From NCBI RefSeq assembly GCF_030013595.1, contig NZ_CP122768.1: 64,000 nucleotides of DNA. One strand, given 5' to 3'. Below are positions 33,541 to 60,020 of this stretch, one piece after another (position 1 is the stretch's first letter; each line of letters starts with the position of its first letter). The DNA is from Escherichia coli (GTDB lineage: Bacteria; Pseudomonadota; Gammaproteobacteria; Enterobacterales; Enterobacteriaceae). The position numbers were made by a program, and so were the translations under genes. The notes under the pieces were generated by a model that did no database searches, had not been told where the DNA came from, and saw only the letters and a program-made list of their open reading frames with translations.

Positions 33541-36205
33541 ATTCTGGCGAACAACTGAACTAATACATCAGAATCTGCATTATGTTAAATAAATATAAAA
33601 AGATGGTTTAAATACCCCGTTACTTTTGACTTACACTATACGGTATCGCATCGTTTAATATTCGCACCGGCCAGATTTTTATTTCTATTAGTTGTCACAA
33701 TACTGAATGCGTACGACCACAGTATTCTGGCTCCTGTGTGGTTATGCTTTAATTCTGCGTTCCGGGCAGATAAGCAGTTGCTTGCAGGAATCCTTCTTGT
33801 GTTAATGTCAGTTCCCCTTTTACCAGTGCTGATTTCCACATTCCGTCCAACAGAGCTTATAGCCTTTCCCTGGATTATAGCATTGTCCGGCTGAAGTTCT
33901 TTTTGAATAATAATAGAAGCACTGCTGGCAGATCCAGTCCGTTTTTCATAACCCACTGTACTGATAACCATAATCTAATCAGTAGAAATTGAGTCGAAAA
34001 TAAGCACTACTCCATACAGGATAATTAGAGGTCAGTTTGATTATTCACAATTCATCATCAGCATTTTCTATTTCTGACGAAATCAATATGAAAATAACCA
34101 TATATGATAATTATTATAATAACGGCTTTAATTGGAATACATATATTACAACGTATTATATATAATTGGTATTCTGGGAACTATATTCTCAAAATACAGT
34201 AGAAACGAGGTATGTTTCTGGTGGAAAGGACAGTGGGATTAAAAAGTAAGAATTGATAAAAAAAACGCCAGCAACACATAGTGCCGGCGGAGGGAATACC
34301 CCATGGAGAAAATGTGATGCCTAGAGCATCATGAATATATAATTAAAAATAGTTAGCGTTGTCAATACTTTCACAAAAATAATTTTCGTAGTATAGAAAG
34401 ATATTTTTATGCATGACCTACCTGAATTTGCTCCGGGTAGAGGTTATAAATAAAAATTGAATCACGACAAACACAATATTCATAGTATGGCGATGCCTAC
34501 GCCAGCAAGAATAGCGCCAATAATATTGGGAATATAATAGACACCAGACGCACAGGCATCTCACTCCTTAACAAACAACAATCAGGATATTTACTTTTAC
34601 CAAGCTAACTGTTTACACCCAAAGTACACACAATTAACCATTCAATAACAAATGGCAATATCCATAGCCATACGACTTTACCTTGTAATGTTCGGTATTT
34701 CTTTATAATTATTCTGGGAAATCTAACATTTATTTTTAAAATCAAATTATCTTGTTGTTTAAAAATAAGTTCACATACTTTATCATCTTCTTCCGCCATC
34801 AACATCTCTGCATACTTAAACATTTCAGAACGTTCCTTTAGCACAGAAGAGTAATTATATGTCCAGTTCCCAGGCAATAATGCTTATGGATATTTAATTC
34901 ATAATTTAGAGAATATTTTGCAATAATATTTGGCAGTATTCAGAAATACCTGAAAAATCATACTATACAGCCCTAGGGAATGGATAAAGATTCTAACAAA
35001 GCATTTCAACAATATATACTTGTTAAAAATCCATATCGAAATGCCGTTGCAGCATTAATATATGCCTCATTCATAAAATGTAAAAGAGCAAGCTCGTACC
35101 AGTAGGGGGGAAATTCATTGACATGTCCTGTCAATACGTACAGAGCCCTGCCATGCTTGCCAGCACGTAACAATTCCGCCCCCAGTAACCAGCGTGTTCC
35201 CTGATTATTCTCAGGGTTATATGTTAGTATTTTATCAATGAGTATAACGGCATCCTGATGACGCTGTAAATGAACATTCGCCAGAATTGCAGCATAAAGA
35301 GCGCAAATGCATATGCCAGATGAGCGTGAATATCAATGATGTCAGGAGCATGTCAGGCAAGACGCCTGAGTTTGTTGACGTAATTTGTTTCGTTTATTTC
35401 ATCACTATCGTATGCGTCAAGAGTTTTTTCAAACTCATCCCGAAATGGGCCAAGCCTGGTTTCAGGAAATAAGAAATACCCTTGGTTATTGTTCACTTAA
35501 AAGTATAATTTGTAATTCAAATCCTGAGCCTGTAAAGCGGGGAGTAACATATTCTATTCTGAAGAGAATAAAAGTCGTGATGCGATGTATCAAGCCCGGA
35601 TTGTAATCCCAGATTAACATAGATCACAAAACAACTTATTCTTCACTAACGTCAAGATAAATATCGTTGTATGCCTTATCACGACTACGAATACCAGCAA
35701 GATACAACTGACATACGGAAAGATACCACGTTTTTTACTCCCGAAAATAACGCTAAAAAGCTACTTCCCCATCGTTTGTCCTTAGTATTGCCAGCGCCAA
35801 CAATGTGGGCTGACATGATAAAGCTGTCTAGGAAATTGTTCGCCTCCTCAGCGGACAATCCAAATGGTGATTGTCTCTGTTAAACGTTTATTTTGAAGGT
35901 CGACTGAATAAGGTGATGACGCTGTAGAATTTTTCACGTGCCACAGAATTTTGAACGCTTTCTCTTACAATATTTCAATGTTTCTATCAGTATTCGCCGG
36001 AAGAAGTCATCGACCAAATCATCCCAGTCGTCTCGCATCACTGACCATTCATGGTTGACATGTGGTGGAAATCCGCTTCTACAGTAACCATTTTTTATTC
36101 GCAAAACCGAACACGCCATACGGATAGCTGTTAACTGGCATGCCGAGGCAGTCGTTATTTATATTTGGTTTTGTCAATAATCTTTATTTTTTGTAAAAGG
36201 CAAAT

Positions 36206-51278: not shown

Positions 51279-51360
51279 CGCTAAATCTCAGACCGGGGTG
51301 AAAACTCCGGTTTTGTCATATTTCACCTCTGTATTGGCGTGATGCAAAATGGCATCTGAA

Positions 51361-51447
51361 TCGATCATGGTTTGGCATCCATTTCCGATCACAGTTTGGC
51401 ATCACAATCGATCACGATTTGGCATGCTTCCGCTCATTGATTGGCAT
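51361..51447 (+). repeat. Array of four ~20-bp direct repeats with core TTTGGCAT (iteron-like)
   Basis: TCGATCATGGTTTGGCATCC / CCGATCACAGTTTGGCATCA / TCGATCACGATTTGGCATGC / CTCATTGATTGGCATCC, unevenly spaced (~12 to ~34 bp between cores), between terW-like stop and the IS66 orf1. Confidence 0.6.
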
Positions 51448-51538
51448 CCTGGTGTCGTTACGGGGAAGTCATCTTCACAGGGATCTTCAGTCAGTTAGCA
51501 TTACCGACATCCATTCACCAACTTACCGGAGATAATCA

Positions 51539-51868
51539 ATGTCAAAACCCCGATGGACGCTTGATCAGAAAAAACATCACGTTGCCGCATGGCGCGCCAG
51601 CGGCCTTACCCGTGAACAGTACTGTGAACTTTACGACATTCCGTTTAAATCCCTGCGCCAGTGGCCGCAGGATGTCGCAAAAGCCGAAAAACGAGCCAGA
51701 GCACCAGAAATTATTCCTGTTTCAGTATCTGGCTCTTCCGGAATGACTGATGGCAGACCATTGTCGGATGAGCCTGTCACTCTCTTCCTGCCCGGTGGTA
51801 TCCGGATGTGCTGCCAGCCTTCTCAGTTAACCGATGTTTTCCGGGCTCTTCGCCATGCTGACGCCTGA
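51539..51868 (+). CDS. IS66-family accessory protein orf1 (outer copy)
   Basis: 109 aa MSKPRWTLDQKKHHVAAWRASGLTREQYCELYDIPFKSLRQW (HTH). Confidence 0.65.
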   Translation: MSKPRWTLDQKKHHVAAWRASGLTREQYCELYDIPFKSLRQWPQDVAKAEKRARAPEIIPVSVSGSSGMTDGRPLSDEPVTLFLPGGIRMCCQPSQLTDVFRALRHADA

Positions 51869-52235
51869 TAACGTATTCCTGGTCGTAAAACCCGTCGATA
51901 TGCGCCGGGGTATCGACACACTGACACAGTACGTCCAGAACGAACTTAACGCTGCATGGCATGACGGTGCTGCTTTTGTCTTCACCAATAAAGTCCGCTC
52001 CCGCATAAAAGTTCTCCGGTGGGACAAACATGGCGTATGGCTGTGTACCCGACGACTGCACCGGGGAAGCTTCCGCTGGCCCCGGAAAGGTGATGCCACA
52101 TGGCATCTCACACAGGATGAGTTTCACTGGCTGGTCTTTGGGGTTGACTGGCAACAGGTGAAAGGGCATGACCTGGCAAAATGGGTATACCAGGAAGAAC
52201 CCGAAGATGCTCAGAGCAACGCAATAACTCAATGA
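51834..52235 (+). CDS. IS66-family TnpB-like orf2 (outer copy)
   Basis: ...LVVKPVDMRRGIDTL...VLRWDKHGVWLCTRRLHRGSFRWP parallels other IS66 orf2 copies. Confidence 0.65.
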   Translation: MFSGLFAMLTPDNVFLVVKPVDMRRGIDTLTQYVQNELNAAWHDGAAFVFTNKVRSRIKVLRWDKHGVWLCTRRLHRGSFRWPRKGDATWHLTQDEFHWLVFGVDWQQVKGHDLAKWVYQEEPEDAQSNAITQ

Positions 52236-52277
52236 AATATAATGAATATCCATGCGTGATGTCATATAATCCACCGC

Positions 52278-53108
52278 ATGGATATCTCGCTTCTCAGTAC
52301 CACCAGTGACCCTGAACAGCTTCGCGCTCTGGCAATTGCCATGGTGCAAAAAGTCATGGCTGAGAATGCAGAACTTCAGAACCGTATCCGCATCCTGGAA
52401 GAGCAGATGAAGCTCGCACGCCAGCAGCGTTTCGGTAAAAAATGCGAATCGCTGGCCGGGATGCAGCGTTCCCTGTTCGAAGAGGATGTTGACGCGGATA
52501 TCGCAGAAATCTCGGCGCATCTGGACAAACTGCTTCCTCAGACCGGGGACGAAGAAAAAACAACAACACGTCCTGTTCGTAAGCCCTTGCCTTCACCTCT
52601 TCCCCGTGCTGAAAAGGTTATCCCGCCAGCTGAGGAACGTTGTCCTGACTGTGATGCCCCCCTGCACTTCATTCGCGATGAAGTCAGCGAGAAGCTGGAA
52701 TATATTCCGGCACAGGTCGTGGTCAACCGCTATATCCGCCCGCAGTACAGCTGTCCCTGCTGTGAGAAAGTGTTCAGCGGAAAAATGCCGGCACATATCC
52801 TTCCGAAAAGTGCTGTTGAGCCATCGGTCATCGCACAGGTTGTCATCAGCAAATATACCGACCATCTGCCCCTGTATCGCCAGCAGCACATTTTCTCCCG
52901 AATGGGGGTGGAGCTCCCCGTCAGTACAATGGCGGATATGGTCGGTGTTGCTGGCGCTGCACTGGCCCCGCTGGCAAAATTGTTACGCCACGAGCTTCTG
53001 ACACGGGATGTTATTCATGCAGATGAAACGTCCCTGAGGCTCCTTGATACCCGGAAAGGCGGTAAATCCTGCTCCGGCTGGCTGTGGGCTTACGTCAGCG
53101 GAGAAAGA
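52278..53108 (+). pseudogene. IS66-family transposase TnpC, N-terminal part (interrupted by nested IS66)
   Basis: Cys-rich region CPDCDA...CPCCEK; reading frame runs into the nested element's terminal repeat at 53109. Confidence 0.7.
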
Positions 53109-53138
53109 GTAAGCGTCAACGGAGCACCGTATTGACGC

Positions 53139-54752
53139 TTATTTATTGGTGAGTACTACGTTCCATGGCAGGAGTTCATCAACTCGGTTGGAAGGCCATT
53201 CTGGCAGTACGCTCAGGATATGGCGCAGATACGCTTCCGGATCGATACCGTTCAGACGGCAGGTGCCGATCAGCCCGTACAACAGTGCTCCACGCTCGCC
53301 GCCGTGATCGCTGCCAAAGAACATAAAGTTTTTCTTTCCGAGACAGACTGCACGAAGCGCTCTTTCCGCAGCATTATTATCCGCCTCCGCCAGACCGTCA
53401 TCACTGTAATAACAGAGGGCATCCCACTGATTCAGTACATAGCTGCACGCTTCGCCCAGTCTGGATTTTTTCGACAGCGTACCATTCTTCTCCACCATCC
53501 ATTCATGCAGTGACGTCAGTAACACTTTGCTTCGCTGCTGCCTGACGGCAAGACGCTCTGACTCCGGTAATCCCCGTATTTCATCCTCGATGGCGTACAG
53601 TTCACTGATTCGCTTCAGGGCTTCTTCTGCCGTCGCACTTTTGCTGCTGATGTATACATCGTGGATTTTTCGCCGGGCATGGGCCCAGCACGCAACTTCT
53701 GTCAGTGCACCACCTTCACGTTCTGCACTGAACAGCCGATCGTAACCGCTGAACGCATCCGCCTGCAGGATACCCCGGAAGGGACGAAGGTGTTGTACCG
53801 GATGTTTTCCCTGCCTGTCTGGTGAGTAGGCGAACCAGACCGCCGGTGGCTCTGATGAGCCCGCATTCCGGTCATCCCGGACATACGTCCAGATGCGTCC
53901 TGTTTTTGCCTTTTTTCTGCCCGGTGCCAGCACTTTTACTGGTGTGTCGTCAGTGTGAACCTTGCGGGTGTTCATCACGTAACGGTACAGGGTATCATTC
54001 AGCAGAGTCATTAACTGACAACATGCGTCAACCCAGTTGGAGAGTAATGCCCGGCTCAGTTCGATGCCCTGGCGGGCAAAGATTTCACTCTGACGATACA
54101 GTGGCAGGTGTTCGCAGTATTTTCCCGTTAACACGCGGGCAAGTAATCCGGAGCCCGCGATGCCGCGCTCTATCGGGCGGGACGGCGCTGGCGCTTCAAC
54201 TATACAGTCACATTTTGTACAGGCTTTTTTTACCCGAACAGTGCGGATCACTTTCAGGGCGCTACTCACCAGTTCCAGCTGCTCAGCACTGACTTCCCCC
54301 AGATAATCCAGCTCACTGCCACACTCCGGGCAACAACTTTCTTCAGGCTCCAGACGGTGTATTTCACGGGGAAGATGTGCCGGTAACGGACGACGATGAC
54401 GTGACTGTCGCAACTGGCGGGGAACCTGCGGGTCATCCTCACGCCCACTGTAACGATCGCTTTCCTGTTCGCGTTGTTTCAGTTGGGCCTCAGCCTGTTC
54501 AACCTCACGCTGCAGTTTTTCAGAACGGGTACCGAACAACATCCGGCGCAGTTTTTCTATCTGGGCCCTCAGATGTTCTATTTCCCGCTCCTCCTCTTCG
54601 ATCTTTTCCTCGGCACGTGCCAGTGCAGAGCGCAGGAAGGCCTCCGTCTCTTCAACCAGACTCAGTTGCTGATCTTTCTGACGGAGGGCTTCAGCCTGCT
54701 CAGAGAGCAGCCTTTCCAGCTCAGTGATACGAATGAGGTATTTCCGACTCAT
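53139..54752 (-). CDS. IS66-family transposase TnpC (nested copy)
   Basis: 537 aa; CPECGSEL...CTKCDC zinc-finger-like region; DDE region. Confidence 0.85.
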   Translation of the reverse strand: MSRKYLIRITELERLLSEQAEALRQKDQQLSLVEETEAFLRSALARAEEKIEEEEREIEHLRAQIEKLRRMLFGTRSEKLQREVEQAEAQLKQREQESDRYSGREDDPQVPRQLRQSRHRRPLPAHLPREIHRLEPEESCCPECGSELDYLGEVSAEQLELVSSALKVIRTVRVKKACTKCDCIVEAPAPSRPIERGIAGSGLLARVLTGKYCEHLPLYRQSEIFARQGIELSRALLSNWVDACCQLMTLLNDTLYRYVMNTRKVHTDDTPVKVLAPGRKKAKTGRIWTYVRDDRNAGSSEPPAVWFAYSPDRQGKHPVQHLRPFRGILQADAFSGYDRLFSAEREGGALTEVACWAHARRKIHDVYISSKSATAEEALKRISELYAIEDEIRGLPESERLAVRQQRSKVLLTSLHEWMVEKNGTLSKKSRLGEACSYVLNQWDALCYYSDDGLAEADNNAAERALRAVCLGKKNFMFFGSDHGGERGALLYGLIGTCRLNGIDPEAYLRHILSVLPEWPSNRVDELLPWNVVLTNK

Positions 54753-54782
54753 GACCGTTTTTATAATCCGGCCATGACATTT

Positions 54783-55133
54783 TTACAACATTGTCAGTGC
54801 ATTAAGGCGGGATGTTTTGGGCTGACGCCAGTCCAGTTTATCGAGGAGCATTGCCAGCTGCGAGCGGGTAATGGATACCTTACCGTCACGCACCGCAGGC
54901 CAGATAAACTGGCCTTCCTCCAGACGTTTGGTGAACAGGCACAGACCATCAGCATCAGCCCACAGAATTTTAATCGTGTCACCCCGTCGGCCGCGAAAGA
55001 TAAACAGGTGACCGGAGAAGGGGTTCTCATCCAGCACATGTTGTACCTGTTCTCCCAGACCGTTGAAGGATTTACGCATATCAGTAACGCCGGCAACCAG
55101 CCAGATTCGAGTGCCTGATGGGAGCGAGATCAT
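54783..55133 (-). CDS. IS66-family TnpB-like orf2 (nested copy)
   Basis: 116 aa MISLPSGTRIWLVAGVTDMRKSFNGL... Confidence 0.8.
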   Translation of the reverse strand: MISLPSGTRIWLVAGVTDMRKSFNGLGEQVQHVLDENPFSGHLFIFRGRRGDTIKILWADADGLCLFTKRLEEGQFIWPAVRDGKVSITRSQLAMLLDKLDWRQPKTSRLNALTML

Positions 55134-55555
55134 CGTCCCCTCCCGGTCAGTTCACGGATCAACACCGTGAGCAGCTCTGGTGAAGGATTTTCCAGCGTCA
55201 TGTTACCGTGGCGGAACTCAACTTTACAGGAACTGGCACTGACTGTGCTTTGTGAAGGAGTGGATAAAAGCGGAGTAAGAGCCGCCATAGGCTCTTTCTG
55301 CTCATCAGGCGTTATCTCAACAGGTAATAATTCAACGCCAGCGCCAGAAGAGGTTGTTACCGGAAGACGCCGCGATATACGCCTTTCGTTCTGCCAGAGC
55401 CTGAGCCATTTGAACAGGAGGTTATCATTGATATCGTGTTCCCGGGCAATACGGGCAACAGAGGCTCCTGGTTGTGAAGCCAGTTTAACCATTTGAAGTT
55501 TAAACTCATTTGAAAATGATCTGCGGGGTTCTGAGGATAATATTTTCTGTTCCAT
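55130..55555 (-). CDS. IS66-family accessory protein orf1 (nested copy)
   Basis: 141 aa, near-identical to 15953-16378. Confidence 0.8.
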   Translation of the reverse strand: MEQKILSSEPRRSFSNEFKLQMVKLASQPGASVARIAREHDINDNLLFKWLRLWQNERRISRRLPVTTSSGAGVELLPVEITPDEQKEPMAALTPLLSTPSQSTVSASSCKVEFRHGNMTLENPSPELLTVLIRELTGRGR

Positions 55556-55649
55556 AACAGGTGTCCACTAGTTGAAAAGGTGGGCACCTACGTTACCAAT
55601 ACTGGCTTAATGGCTACATACGGCGGTCAGTTTACGCTTACGAGAAAGA

Positions 55650-56360
55650 AGCGGTCCGCCGGTCGTCTGTTTTGACTCGCAGACCGGACGGGCCCTCAGA
55701 TATCCTGAGGCCTGGCTGCAGGGCTGGTGTGGCGGTACGCTGGTGAGTGACGGATACAGCGTGTACAAATCTCTGGCGGATAATGACCCCGGTATTACAT
55801 CTGCCTGTTGCTGGAGCCACGCAAGGCGCGGTTTCGCAAATCTGTATAAGGCCAGCAGGGAGCCCCGTGCAGCCATGGCGCTGAGAAAAATCGCGGGTCT
55901 TTATCGCATTGAGAAGTTCATCCGTGAACGTCCTGTGGAAAAAATACGGCAATGGCGACAACGGTATTCCCGGCCGATAGTGAATGACCTGTTTGCCTGG
56001 CCTGAAGAGCAGGAGCCGTGCTGTCCGCCCGACGGACCACTAAACAAAGCGATTAATTATATCCTGAACCGGCGCGATGAACTGAGCTGCTTCCTGAGTG
56101 ACGGAGCCGTGCCCCTGGACAACAATATCTGCGAGCGTGCTATCCGCCCGGTGGTCATGGGGCGGAAAGCATGGTTATTCGCCGGTTCACTGATGGCCGG
56201 GAACCGCGCGGCACAGATAATGAGCCTTCTGGAAACGGCAAAACGTAATGGTCTGGAGCCGCATGCCTGGCTGACAGACGTTCTGACGCGTCTACCGGAG
56301 TGGCCGGAAGACCGACTGGAAGAGTTGCTGCCCCTTGAGGGATTTACCTTCTCCGGATGA
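55650..56360 (+). pseudogene. IS66-family transposase TnpC, C-terminal part (outer copy, resumes after nested IS)
   Basis: ...CWSHARRGFANLYKA...LPEWPEDRLEELLPL is the conserved TnpC C-terminus; track ORF 55743-56360. Confidence 0.7.
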
Positions 56361-56570
56361 GTGATACCTGCCATCAGGTGTTCGTGCAGCGGGCCATAAC
56401 CCGCAGTCGGGAGTTGAACGCCTGACGACAGGAAATGAGCCAGAGCAGCGACCACGCGGGCTGACAGTGAGTCAGAACCTGAATCAGCCCGGAGCCATTC
56501 CCGGGGCTGTACTTCATCACCTGCCATCAGTACCCGTGTCAGTACTTCGCGACCTGACGCAATTACCCGA

Positions 56571-56870
56571 CTCAGTTCTTCAGAACCCGCCTCCGATACC
56601 AGCCTGGCGGTCGCCCCTGTGCAACAAAATAAATCAACCATCGTCAGACGGTGATCAATCGTATGCGCTGCCAGTGGCTCGCCTGAAAAATGCGTCAATA
56701 TGAGTTCGCCGGAACAATACCTCAGTTCTTCAGAACCCGCCTCCGATACCAGCCTGGCGGTCGCCCCGGCGCAACAGAATAAATCAACCATCGTCAGACT
56801 GCGATCATTCGTATGCATCGCTGATGATGCGCCCGAAAAACGCGTCAATATGAGTTCGCCGGAATATTAC
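56571..56870 (+). repeat. Tandem direct duplication, 2 x ~150 bp, ~85-90% identical by eye
   Basis: Unit begins CTCAGTTCTTCAGAACCCGCCTCCGATACCAGCCTGGCGGTCGCCCC... at 56571 and again at 56721. Confidence 0.8.
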
Positions 56871-57243
56871 TGACGACACGGTTTGTAGTTACGTTCCTTC
56901 GGTGAGTGAGTACCTGTGCGTCAGGGTAACGCAATCAGTTCAGGTTTAGCGGGGTGTCAAGTCGGTTTGGCTAACCGACCGCAGAATTAACTGTACCTTT
57001 AAAGGTCGCCCCCGATATATCTGCCTGTCAGACATATCGCCGATTCGGTATCTCACTACATAAAACTCCTTAAAAAACAATGCGATTCTGTTGGTACGAA
57101 GCTTTCAGTAAGTCAGTCCGGAGAAGCGCCAGTACGATACAGAATGAGGTTGAAAAAAACGTTCACGTCTGGTCACTTCTTCAAATGTTAAAAAACATCT
57201 CGTAAAGAGCCAGTTTATGCGGGTTCGTTGAGTAGACGTGCGA

Positions 57244-57282
57244 GCGTCACTTTGTCAGCTTTAACGCTGACGAAAGTGACGC
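57244..57282 (+). repeat. Near-perfect 16-bp inverted repeat with 6-nt loop (strong stem-loop) in a ~1-kb ORF-free region
   Basis: GCGTCACTTTGTCAGC - TTTAAC - GCTGACGAAAGTGACGC (one bulged G). Confidence 0.6.
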
Positions 57283-57582
57283 CCGCACAGCTTCAAACTC
57301 CACATGCACACGCAAGCGACCAAATTTCAAATGGTCTTATGCCGTGCGCACAGTCATAAGAAGCGCATGCGGAAAGTCAGAAAATATCTTAAGACGCAGA
57401 TTTTAAAGGCGTTTTTATGCCAGTCTGCCGGGAATACACAGTAGTCCGGTTGTCCGGAAGCACCACGGTAATCCGAAGGAAAAATCAACGTACCTCAATC
57501 ACCGTAGTGATATCCGTTCCCAGAGGCTAAACGGATGTACCACCATAAAGGCATCCTCTTTCAGGCTACGAGGATATTGCAA

Positions 57583-57671
57583 TCACCCGAAGGCGTTTCT
57601 CTCAGATTGCTGAAACATTGGCTGGCAGTCACCCGAAGGCGTCCCTCTCAGACTGCTGGAACATTGGCTGG
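57583..57671 (+). repeat. Tandem direct repeat, 2 x 43 bp separated by 3 bp
   Basis: TCACCCGAAGGCGTTTCTCTCAGATTGCTGAAACATTGGCTGG / TCACCCGAAGGCGTCCCTCTCAGACTGCTGGAACATTGGCTGG. Confidence 0.8.
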
Positions 57672-57826
57672 TCGCAAAAGCGACAGTTAATGCAAATACA
57701 GGTTAACAAAAAGGGAAATCTGCCGTCAACCCAACCATATGAACATGTTGATTTCATTATGAATGTGATGTTCTAATATAAATTAATCAGTAACTTCATA
57801 AAAAGAATATAAGAAACAGATAATGC

Positions 57827-58564: not shown

Positions 58565-58716
58565 AAAAAGAGACAATTCCCGAGATAAAACAAAAGAGCA
58601 TAAACATATGAACCGGAAATTCTATTTCAAAAATATCCTGTGGGGAATGTGCCCCATTATAATATCCATATTGCATCTGATATATGACACACCAACAGAA
58701 GGGTAATGACTCCAAC

Positions 58717-59220
58717 TTACTGATAGTGTTTTATGTTCAGATAATGCCCGATGACCTTGTCATGCAGCTCCACCGATTTTGAGAACGACAGTGACTTCCG
58801 TCCCAGCCTTGCCAGATGTTGTCTCAGATTCAGGTTATGCCGCTCAATGCGCTGAGTATAACGCTTGCTGATAACGTGCAGCTTTCCCTTCAGGCGTGAT
58901 TCATACAGCGGCCAGCCATCCGTCATCCATACCACGACCTCAAAGGCCGACAGCAGGCTCAGAAGACGCTCCAGTGTGGCCAGAGTGCGTTCACCGAAGA
59001 CGTGCGCCACAACCGTCCTCCGCATCCTGTCATACGCGTAAAACAGCCAGCGCTGACGTGATTTAGCACCGACGTAGCCCCACTGTTCGTCCATTTCAGC
59101 GCAGACAATCACATCACTGCCCGGTTGTATGCGCGAGGTTACCGACTGCGGCCTGAGTTTTTTAAGTGGCGGAAAATCGTGTTGAGGCCAACGCCAATAA
59201 TGCGTGCACTGGCGCGACAT
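58717..59220 (-). CDS. insB: IS1 InsB (transposase frame)
   Basis: 167 aa, near-identical to copy A InsB. Confidence 0.9.
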
Positions 59221-59414
59221 CCGACGCCATTCATGGCCATATCAATGATTTTCTGGTGCGTACCGGGCTGAGAGGCGGCGTAAGTGAACTGTAGTTGCCA
59301 TGTTTTACGGCAGTGAGAGCAGAGATAGCGCTGATGTCCGGCGGTGCTTTTGCCGTTACGCACCACCCCGTCAGTAGCTGAACAGGAGGGACAGCTGATA
59401 GAAACAGAAGCCAC
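59139..59414 (-). CDS. insA: IS1 InsA
   Basis: 91 aa, near-identical to copy A InsA. Confidence 0.9.
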
Positions 59415-60020
59415 TGGAGCACCTCAAAAACACCATCATACACTAAATCAGTAAGTTGGCAGCATCACCAACAGAAGCATCGATAAAAGTTGACTTATTT
59501 CTGATACTCAGTGGCCTGGCCCTTCCTTGTTCAATATACCTGACAAAAACAATCACACTAAAATACACATCCATATCATTCTGGAAAAAACCTCTTTTCT
59601 GGTCTTATGGTATATATCATTTTCATCTTGTTTATATAATGACATGTATAGTTTTAGCAATACCTTCTGCAATTATCGTTTTATTCTTTCACTTTTATCA
59701 AAACATCACCAGAAACTGGAAGTGACAACCGCAATAATGAACATAAAAAGGCAAATCAGAATGGCAGTAAATCAATAAAGTACCATTTCATATGAATCAT
59801 CAGAAAAACGGTGGACGCGACATCCAGCACGAGGCAAAACACAGCAACAAAATAAGCCGGATATCGCGCCCTGTACTTTTCTAACTCAACTCCCGGCATT
59901 GTGCAAGTTTTAATCGCAGGTGGATTCAGAGCCACGCCCCCATTGATTCAGCCTGAAGACACGTATATCCTTGGAGAAAGCAGGAATCTCATTGCTGTGA
60001 AATTCCTTACAGAATCTTCA

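Follow-up and report, generated by a model that had tools for sequence, protein, structure and literature searches.

An IS682 copy nested within the tnpC gene of an older IS66-family relic in a SpLE1/TAI-type island of Escherichia coli

Just downstream of terW in the window (the whole stretch of Escherichia coli DNA analysed here, 64,000 nucleotides in length) two IS66-family insertion sequences lie one inside the other. The inner element is on the minus strand and splits the tnpC gene of the outer element, which is read on the plus strand. Both the difference in orientation and the presence of a complete three-ORF IS66 element at 53109-55641 had been noted in a preliminary description, and both were upheld, the coordinates being exact and tnpA, tnpB and tnpC intact. 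The inner element and its junctions are composed of the following features.

53101..53108, unstranded: left copy of the 8-bp target-site duplication, GAGAAAGA, read directly
53109..55641, minus strand: complete IS682 (IS66 family), 2,533 bp, 100% identical to RefSeq-annotated copies
53109..53134, unstranded: terminal inverted repeat of IS682, tnpC-side end, GTAAGCGTCAACGGAGCACCGTATTG
53139..54752, minus strand: IS682 tnpC, DDE transposase, 537 aa (NCBIfam NF033517 transpos_IS66, 446 bits; cut-off 180)
54783..55133, minus strand: IS682 tnpB, IS66 accessory protein, 116 aa (NF033819 IS66_TnpB, 121 bits; cut-off 50)
55130..55555, minus strand: IS682 tnpA, IS66 accessory protein, 141 aa (NF047595 IS66_ISRel24_TnpA, 84.9 bits; cut-off 74)
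55616..55641, unstranded: terminal inverted repeat of IS682, tnpA-side end, GTAAGCGTAAACTGACCGCCGTATGT
55642..55649, unstranded: right copy of the 8-bp target-site duplication, GAGAAAGA, read directly

The three open reading frames of the inner element are consecutive on one strand, with an overlap of 4 nt between the tnpA stop and the tnpB start, and in a profile search each of the three proteins exceeded its curated NCBIfam cut-off for IS66. The TnpC protein additionally matched the Pfam domains LZ_Tnp_IS66 (PF13007), zf-IS66 (PF13005), DDE_Tnp_IS66 (PF03050) and DDE_Tnp_IS66_C (PF13817), every one with an E-value of at most 3.5e-13. Both ends open with GTAAGCGT and form imperfect inverted repeats of the GTAA(GCG) type, in which 20 of the 26 terminal positions agree and the first eight are all identical. 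Over its 2,533 bp the insert is 100% identical to copies which, together with their tnpA and tnpB, RefSeq labels "IS66-like element IS682 family transposase". No difference was found from IS682 as annotated by NCBI PGAP (TnpC WP_000088522.1, TnpB WP_000624701.1, TnpA WP_000435663.1), which has the same three genes, GTAAGCG... ends and 8-bp duplication. The name rests on identity to PGAP-named copies, used as a proxy for the ISfinder rule of at least 95% identity within the same IS; by this measure the insert is IS682. Copies of IS682 on plasmids diverge from the insert by 0.3-0.5%, and the next relative is ISEc23 at about 93%. Given the intact genes and ends, mobility of the nested IS682 in its own right is possible. 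An Rfam scan of the inner and outer IS identified no RNA family inside either, and the literature on IS682, IS683 and IS679 yielded no account of the present locus.

The identical octamers previously seen at the junctions were also confirmed, GAGAAAGA abutting IS682 directly on either side. This octamer has just six occurrences in the 64-kb window when both strands are counted, and the chance agreement of two given 8-mers is about 1.5e-5; a pair placed exactly at ends bounded by inverted repeats is thus not a matter of chance. Duplications of 8 bp are reported as usual for IS66 (PMC6778807), and three independent IS682 insertions in plasmids each show a perfect one (ATTTAGCA, TTTTATCG and CCATTTTT). 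The in-silico excision proposed in the preliminary description joins 52278-53108 to 55650-56360 as 1,542 nt in frame, encoding 513 aa plus a stop. The expectation that the two tnpC halves would rejoin to a full-length transposase was therefore correct, as 513 aa is the length of the annotated intact orthologue of strain O103:H2 12009.

After removal of IS682 and one octamer the outer element is 2,728 bp long, and it comprises the following parts.

51452..56720, plus strand: outer, older IS66-family element, delimited by end-to-end alignment with the 2,768-bp mobile copies L002-L004
51452..51480, plus strand: degenerate left inverted repeat, GTGTCGTTACGGGGAAGTCATCTTCACAG where the alignment has GTAATGTTCCGGGGACCTCATCTTCACAG in the mobile copies
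51539..51868, plus strand: outer tnpA, 109 aa (NF047593 IS66_ISAeme5_TnpA, 45 bits; cut-off 28; tnpA in RefSeq)
51855..52235, plus strand: outer tnpB, 126 aa (NF033819 IS66_TnpB, 113 bits; annotated in RefSeq)
52278..53108, plus strand: 5' part of outer tnpC, codons 1-277 (in RefSeq a tnpC pseudogene "missing C-terminus")
55650..56360, plus strand: 3' part of outer tnpC, codons 278-513 and stop (in RefSeq a pseudogene "missing N-terminus")
56682..56720, plus strand: right inverted repeat, reverse complement GTATTGTTCCGGCGAACTCATATTGACGC...
56721..56870, plus strand: orphan second right end, 150 bp, 100% identical to the right end of the mobile copy L003

RefSeq goes no further in naming this element than "IS66 family transposase". 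The canonical IS66-family element, which Machida in 1984 and Han in 2001 reportedly described, has the genes tnpA-tnpB-tnpC, GTAA... inverted repeats and an 8-bp duplication; PMC6778807 is a further reference for the family. The outer element shares with IS66 and IS679-type elements the three-gene layout and, after rejoining, the full set of TnpC domains: the rejoined TnpC scores 432 bits against NF033517 and contains all four Pfam IS66 TnpC domains, and all three outer proteins (TnpC rejoined) are above their NCBIfam cut-offs. Its mobile relatives are 2,768 bp long, with GTAATGTTCCGG... ends and 8-bp duplications (TCTTCAGG and GGCTTAAC), and the rejoined TnpC is 97-98% identical to theirs. 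Unlike these relatives, the outer copy carries a 42-bp in-frame deletion in tnpC after about position 52366, in the coiled-coil part, so that the rejoined protein lacks 14 aa of the 527 aa found in the mobile copies. Its left end (GTGTCGTTACGG...) and right end (reverse complement GTATTGTTCCGG...) agree at 23 of 39 positions; they are recognisably homologous to the GTAATGTTCCGG and GTAATATTCCGG ends of the mobile copies yet degenerate from them, the left end starting with GTGTC instead of GTAAT. Compared with the mobile copies as a whole the element is a mosaic, 65-92% identical at the ends and 99-100% identical in the centre. It also lacks an 8-bp duplication of its own, since the left flank is GCATCCTG and the right flank is CTCAGTTC after the first right end, and TGACGACA, which likewise differs from the left flank, after the orphan second right end. 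The absence of a flanking duplication marks the outer copy as a rearranged relic and not an intact IS66 member. The orphan right end is 87% identical to the first (56571-56720), and its presence shows that more than one copy of the outer IS was once at this locus.

The sequence from terW to downstream of the outer element, with the insert excised in silico (4,049 nt), was used as a query for the empty site. At least 80% of it is covered by 63 records, and among the 25 matches listed 23 hold it in one piece at 99.0-99.1% identity. In approximately 60 complete E. coli genomes the terW-adjacent outer element is uninterrupted; one of these is O103:H2 12009, in which the element has one GAGAAAGA and its annotated tnpC product, 513 aa long, differs by 8 aa from the rejoined TnpC. 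The uninterrupted orthologue L005 likewise has GAGAAAGA as a single copy. A natural empty site with one octamer demonstrates simple transposition with an 8-bp target duplication. The orphan right end is also found in the empty-site orthologue and therefore predates the IS682 insertion; with its degenerate left end, its missing duplication and its 42-bp deletion the outer element was already decayed before IS682 arrived. In mobile outer-type copies the same target sequence is unbroken in 128 genomes and 171 plasmids. Between the filled allele and the empty one there are 39 SNPs, 32 of which are clustered just to the right of the junction at 55688-56141. This cluster indicates that at least one additional recombination event separates the two alleles, and thus that the present-day empty allele does not mirror the ancestor exactly.

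The identical IS682 junction was found in 506 of 5,426 complete E. coli genomes, among them O157:H7, O145:H28, O26, O111, O103 and porcine ETEC, with 100% identity in every row sampled from the 506. Such a distribution across many serogroups places the insertion before the spread of the island variant in which it resides. The region is 99.86% identical over 58.7 kb to the island in a porcine ETEC genome, and RefSeq annotation of that region gives the gene order cah, iha, terZABCDE, terW, ureC-G. The ter operon with terW, iha, the ure cluster and the cah autotransporter, in conserved order, identify the island as of the SpLE1/TAI type, i.e., like SpLE1, TAI and O-islands 43 and 48 of EHEC O157:H7, an integrative element with ter, iha and ure. 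SpLE1-like elements have been described, and the presence of IS66-family transposases in them was noted (PMC8193136). The nested composite is inherited with this ter-iha-ure island. Within this tellurite-resistance island of pathogenic E. coli the structure is real but ordinary, and the tnpC pseudogene split around IS682 is already annotated by RefSeq in hundreds of genomes. The window has an additional IS1 at 58702-59469, which is absent from the same site in all 5,426 complete E. coli genomes. Four IS66-family pieces are present within the 64-kb window.

These data are almost certainly to be explained by a single transposition of IS682 into codon 277/278 of the older IS66-family tnpC, just downstream of terW, in a SpLE1/TAI-type island, and no evidence was found against the insertion itself. 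The insert boundaries, the inverted repeats, the three intact genes, the 8-bp duplication and the natural pre-insertion allele were observed directly, while the staggered cuts and the need for all three proteins are carried over from published work on DDE transposases and the IS66 family. In such an event TnpC, together with TnpA and TnpB, would attach the ends of the IS to the two target strands at cuts 8 bp apart; repair of the resulting gaps would then yield the two copies of GAGAAAGA. The insertion interrupts the outer transposase between the HADET and SDGY motifs of the DDE domain and completed the inactivation of an element that was already a relic. The composite has subsequently been carried passively by the island, which moves horizontally among E. 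coli lineages. It is a neutral scar, with no sign of function beyond the possible mobility of IS682.

The preliminary description had taken the perfect duplication to imply a recent insertion. The intact IS682 and the youth of the whole island, judged from its near identity to the porcine ETEC island, would also fit a recent event in this strain, but the same junction in so many genomes, from many serogroups and hosts, refutes recency at the strain level, and we regard this reading as extremely unlikely. A perfect match of 16 bp is a very weak clock from which recency does not follow, and the strain-private event of the region is the nearby IS1 rather than IS682. Recency could be rescued only by 506 independent insertions into a hotspot; given how common uninterrupted mobile copies with this target sequence are, such repeated insertion is implausible. 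Even less credible is an origin of the two tnpC halves from different copies of the outer IS, joined by recombination or deletion around IS682 so that their rejoining is a coincidence. The right-half patch at 55688-56141 is closer to the mobile copies than the empty-site orthologue is, and the orphan second right end is a trace of another copy, as such an origin would have it; however, IS682 has both ends and a perfect duplication, and excision, leaving one octamer, gives back the exact frame and sequence and matches the natural uninterrupted allele beside terW. This empty-site allele shows that both octamer copies are native to one continuous target, and a chimeric origin was rejected on this ground.

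Nesting could also be targeted, if IS66-family elements inserted preferentially into one another through recognition or because they are safe havens. One mobile outer-type copy, in plasmid CP099011, directly adjoins a stub of 17 nt from an IS682-type terminal repeat, which brings these two kinds of IS into contact a second time, and the number of IS66-family pieces in the window could be read in the same way. Against this, the three independent plasmid sites of IS682 are ordinary DNA with unrelated targets, none of approximately 300 uninterrupted outer-type copies carries IS682 at the present site, and the inner and outer TnpC are just 32% identical. Survivorship would be expected to produce IS-in-IS nesting in any case, since insertions into dead IS DNA are neutral. 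We therefore consider targeting very improbable, and both a hotspot and IS-in-IS targeting were rejected in view of the unrelated sites and the intact targets, the single 17-nt stub being their sole support. A candidate for another, distinct IS66 insertion at this position, H102, turned out to be this same IS682, with part of its interior deleted and its tnpC frameshifted.

The locus is a clean textbook case of nested transposition, with the filled allele in 506 genomes and the empty allele in about 60, and a reminder that a perfect target-site duplication says nothing on recency at the strain level; beyond correct annotation its significance is small. Since genomes with either allele can be compared, the IS682 junction could offer an inexpensive way of tracing lineages among SpLE1/TAI tellurite-resistance island variants, in Shiga-toxin-producing as well as porcine enterotoxigenic E. 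coli. On the right side of the IS682 junction, the dense SNP patch at 55688-56141 sets in after 39 bp, and it is identical to the mobile outer-type copies in every filled allele sampled. One conceivable, though rather unlikely, reading is that gene conversion by an active copy produced this tract in the broken 3' part of tnpC, and that the tract stops on the left because homology is lost at the IS682 junction. Were this the case, dead IS fragments would keep exchanging sequence with live copies, and the patch together with the IS682 stub in CP099011 could hint at mutual targeting between IS66 lineages.

The interval 51400-57400 was read and its ORFs were listed, and the junctions were then checked by script. 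All coordinates of the preliminary description proved correct, and the identical octamers it had reported at the junctions were found again: GAGAAAGA, which occurs six times in the window when both strands are counted, is present at 53101-53108 and at 55642-55649, on either side of a 2,533-bp segment (53109-55641) with ends that are inverted repeats (GTAAGCGTCAACGGAGCACCGTATTG and GTAAGCGTAAACTGACCGCCGTATGT; first eight positions identical, 20 out of the first 26 matching). The claim that a complete three-ORF IS66 element lies within the tnpC gene of a second element was likewise borne out, as three intact minus-strand ORFs are located between these repeats:

55555..55130, minus strand, IS682 tnpA (141 aa, intact ORF)
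55133..54783, minus strand, IS682 tnpB (116 aa, 4-nt overlap with the tnpA stop)
54752..53139, minus strand, IS682 tnpC (537 aa, intact ORF)

Over its full length the inner element is 100% identical to copies across many complete E. coli genomes, which carry the RefSeq label "IS66-like element IS682 family transposase" together with IS66 TnpA and TnpB. The inner TnpA, TnpB and TnpC all score above the curated cut-offs of the NCBIfam IS66 models, and according to Pfam TnpC contains leucine-zipper, zinc-finger, DDE and C-terminal IS66 domains. Independent insertions of IS682 are found on three plasmids, of types IncK2/Z, IncHI2 and IncHI1, each with a perfect 8-bp duplication of its own (ATTTAGCA, TTTTATCG and CCATTTTT), in agreement with the 8-bp duplication that is the reported rule for IS66 (PMC6778807).

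In-silico excision and translation confirmed that the halves of the outer tnpC (52278-53108 and 55650-56360) rejoin in frame, as had been proposed, giving an open frame of 1,542 nt that encodes 513 aa. Natural counterparts of this sequence were searched with two probes. The first, a 600-nt probe made by removing the insert in silico and searched in genomes and plasmids, has uninterrupted matches (99.5-99.8% identity) in 128 genomes and 171 plasmids, where the outer-type IS is present as mobile copies in differing locations. More decisive proof is the empty site next to terW, addressed with a 4,049-nt probe, with IS682 and one octamer removed, that covers the interval from terW across the outer element to a point well beyond it. 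This sequence was found in 63 records at a coverage of at least 80%, and among the matches listed 23 out of 25, that of O103:H2 strain 12009 being one, hold it in one piece (99.0-99.1% identity). The site in strain 12009 reads ...GTCAGCGGAGAAAGAAGCGGTCC... with a single GAGAAAGA, and RefSeq has there an intact 1,542-nt tnpC; over 513 residues its product shows 8 differences from the rejoined protein. These uninterrupted single-octamer alleles near terW mean that the state before the insertion is preserved at the same genomic location. The 8-bp duplication was made by the insertion of IS682.

The boundaries of IS682, its inverted repeats and intact genes, the duplication and the pre-insertion allele are direct observations. 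DDE transposases, including those of the IS66 family, act through staggered cuts followed by gap repair; here TnpC with TnpA and TnpB would have joined the ends of the IS to target strands cut 8 bp apart, and gap repair would then have doubled the octamer. The insertion point lies at residue 277/278 of the outer TnpC, within the DDE domain (178-461, Pfam), and it separates the first catalytic region of the outer transposase from the second. There is no indication that neighbouring genes are affected.

The outer TnpA, TnpB and rejoined TnpC pass the NCBIfam IS66 models, and the rejoined TnpC has the same set of four Pfam domains as IS682 TnpC. The inner and outer TnpC share only 32% identity and sequence comparison detected no DNA similarity between the two elements, which belong to different lineages of the IS66 family. 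Mobile copies of the outer type (L002-L004) are 2,768 bp long with ends GTAATGTTCCGG... and GTAATATTCCGG..., 8-bp duplications and a 527-aa TnpC, and the copy in the window (51452-56720) departs from them in five respects. The left end is degenerate (GTGTCGTTACGG...), and it has no flanking duplication (left flank GCATCCTG versus right flank CTCAGTTC). Its tnpC lacks 42 bp (14 aa) through an in-frame deletion at 52366/52367, in the N-terminal coiled-coil region, which is common to the filled and empty alleles. The copy is moreover a mosaic, with a centre 99-100% identical to the mobile copies but ends at only 65-92%. Finally, an orphan second right end of 150 bp (56721-56870) follows the first (56571-56720) in tandem, also in the empty-site orthologue; it matches the right end of L003, a copy on plasmid CP099011, at 100% identity but 56571-56720 at only 87%. 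This suggests that a second element was once present here and has since lost its left part, perhaps via IS-mediated adjacent deletion. As all five features are also present in the empty-site allele they are older than the insertion, and the outer element was already a relic before IS682 arrived.

The filled allele and the empty O103:H2 allele differ by 39 SNPs, 32 of which fall within 55688-56141, a patch with its left edge 39 bp beyond the right-hand junction of IS682. Here the window is approximately 100% identical to the mobile copies, whereas the O103 allele is at approximately 95%. The two alleles are therefore set apart by at least one gene-conversion event, and 55688-56141 looks like a conversion tract in one or other lineage.

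The window matches a porcine ETEC chromosomal island carrying cah, iha, terZABCDE, terW and the urease cluster at 99.86% identity over 58.7 kb. The island is an integrative element of the SpLE1/TAI/OI-43/48 type; elements of this kind have been reported to contain IS66 transposases (PMC8193136). In its entirety (7.2 kb) the nested structure occurs at approximately 100% identity in 507 genomes. O157:H7, O145:H28, O26, O111, O103 and porcine ETEC strains are among the carriers. The perfect duplication had been taken as a sign of a recent insertion, a reading that fails at strain level: the IS682/outer-tnpC junction occurs in 506 out of 5,426 complete genomes, at 100% identity in every match sampled across that range. 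Its presence in hundreds of genomes of many serogroups identifies the insertion as one old event that has been passed on together with the island. The transposition of this known IS into a decayed member of its family is real and cleanly documented, and hundreds of public genomes already carry its annotation; in these RefSeq has the tnpC halves beside IS682 as pseudogenes ("missing C-terminus" and "missing N-terminus").

A 768-bp IS1 (58702-59469) with a 9-bp duplication, CAACAGAAG, interrupts a hypothetical gene. It is absent from this site in all 5,426 complete E. coli genomes searched, and is therefore the strain-private, recent event of the region. Between terW and the outer IS are four iteron-like 21-nt direct repeats (51359-51448; core GATCAnnnTTTGGCATC, spacing 22-24 bp), the last of which directly adjoins the left end of the IS; they could be a binding-site array, for TerW or a replication/partition protein, truncated by the IS. 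On plasmid CP099011 the mobile outer-type IS directly adjoins a 17-nt stub (2083-2099 of L003) that matches the IS682 terminal repeat on the tnpC side exactly, and a corresponding duplication is lacking at the opposite end of that copy; the stub is a second, rearranged contact between IS682 and this IS type. Rfam gave three matches with scores above the gathering thresholds:

57534-57685, minus strand, STAXI RNA (134 bits), approximately 660 bp downstream of the outer IS
34257-34330, minus strand, Esr41, an EHEC sRNA (103 bits)
11369-11605, minus strand, IS102 RNA (64 bits)

The same island also carries a complete three-gene IS66-family element at approximately 12800-15430, which is distant from IS682 (tnpC of 1,572 nt, 68-71% DNA identity), and a 581-bp IS66-family left-end fragment at 15883-16463 that is 84% identical to IS682 and has an intact tnpA.
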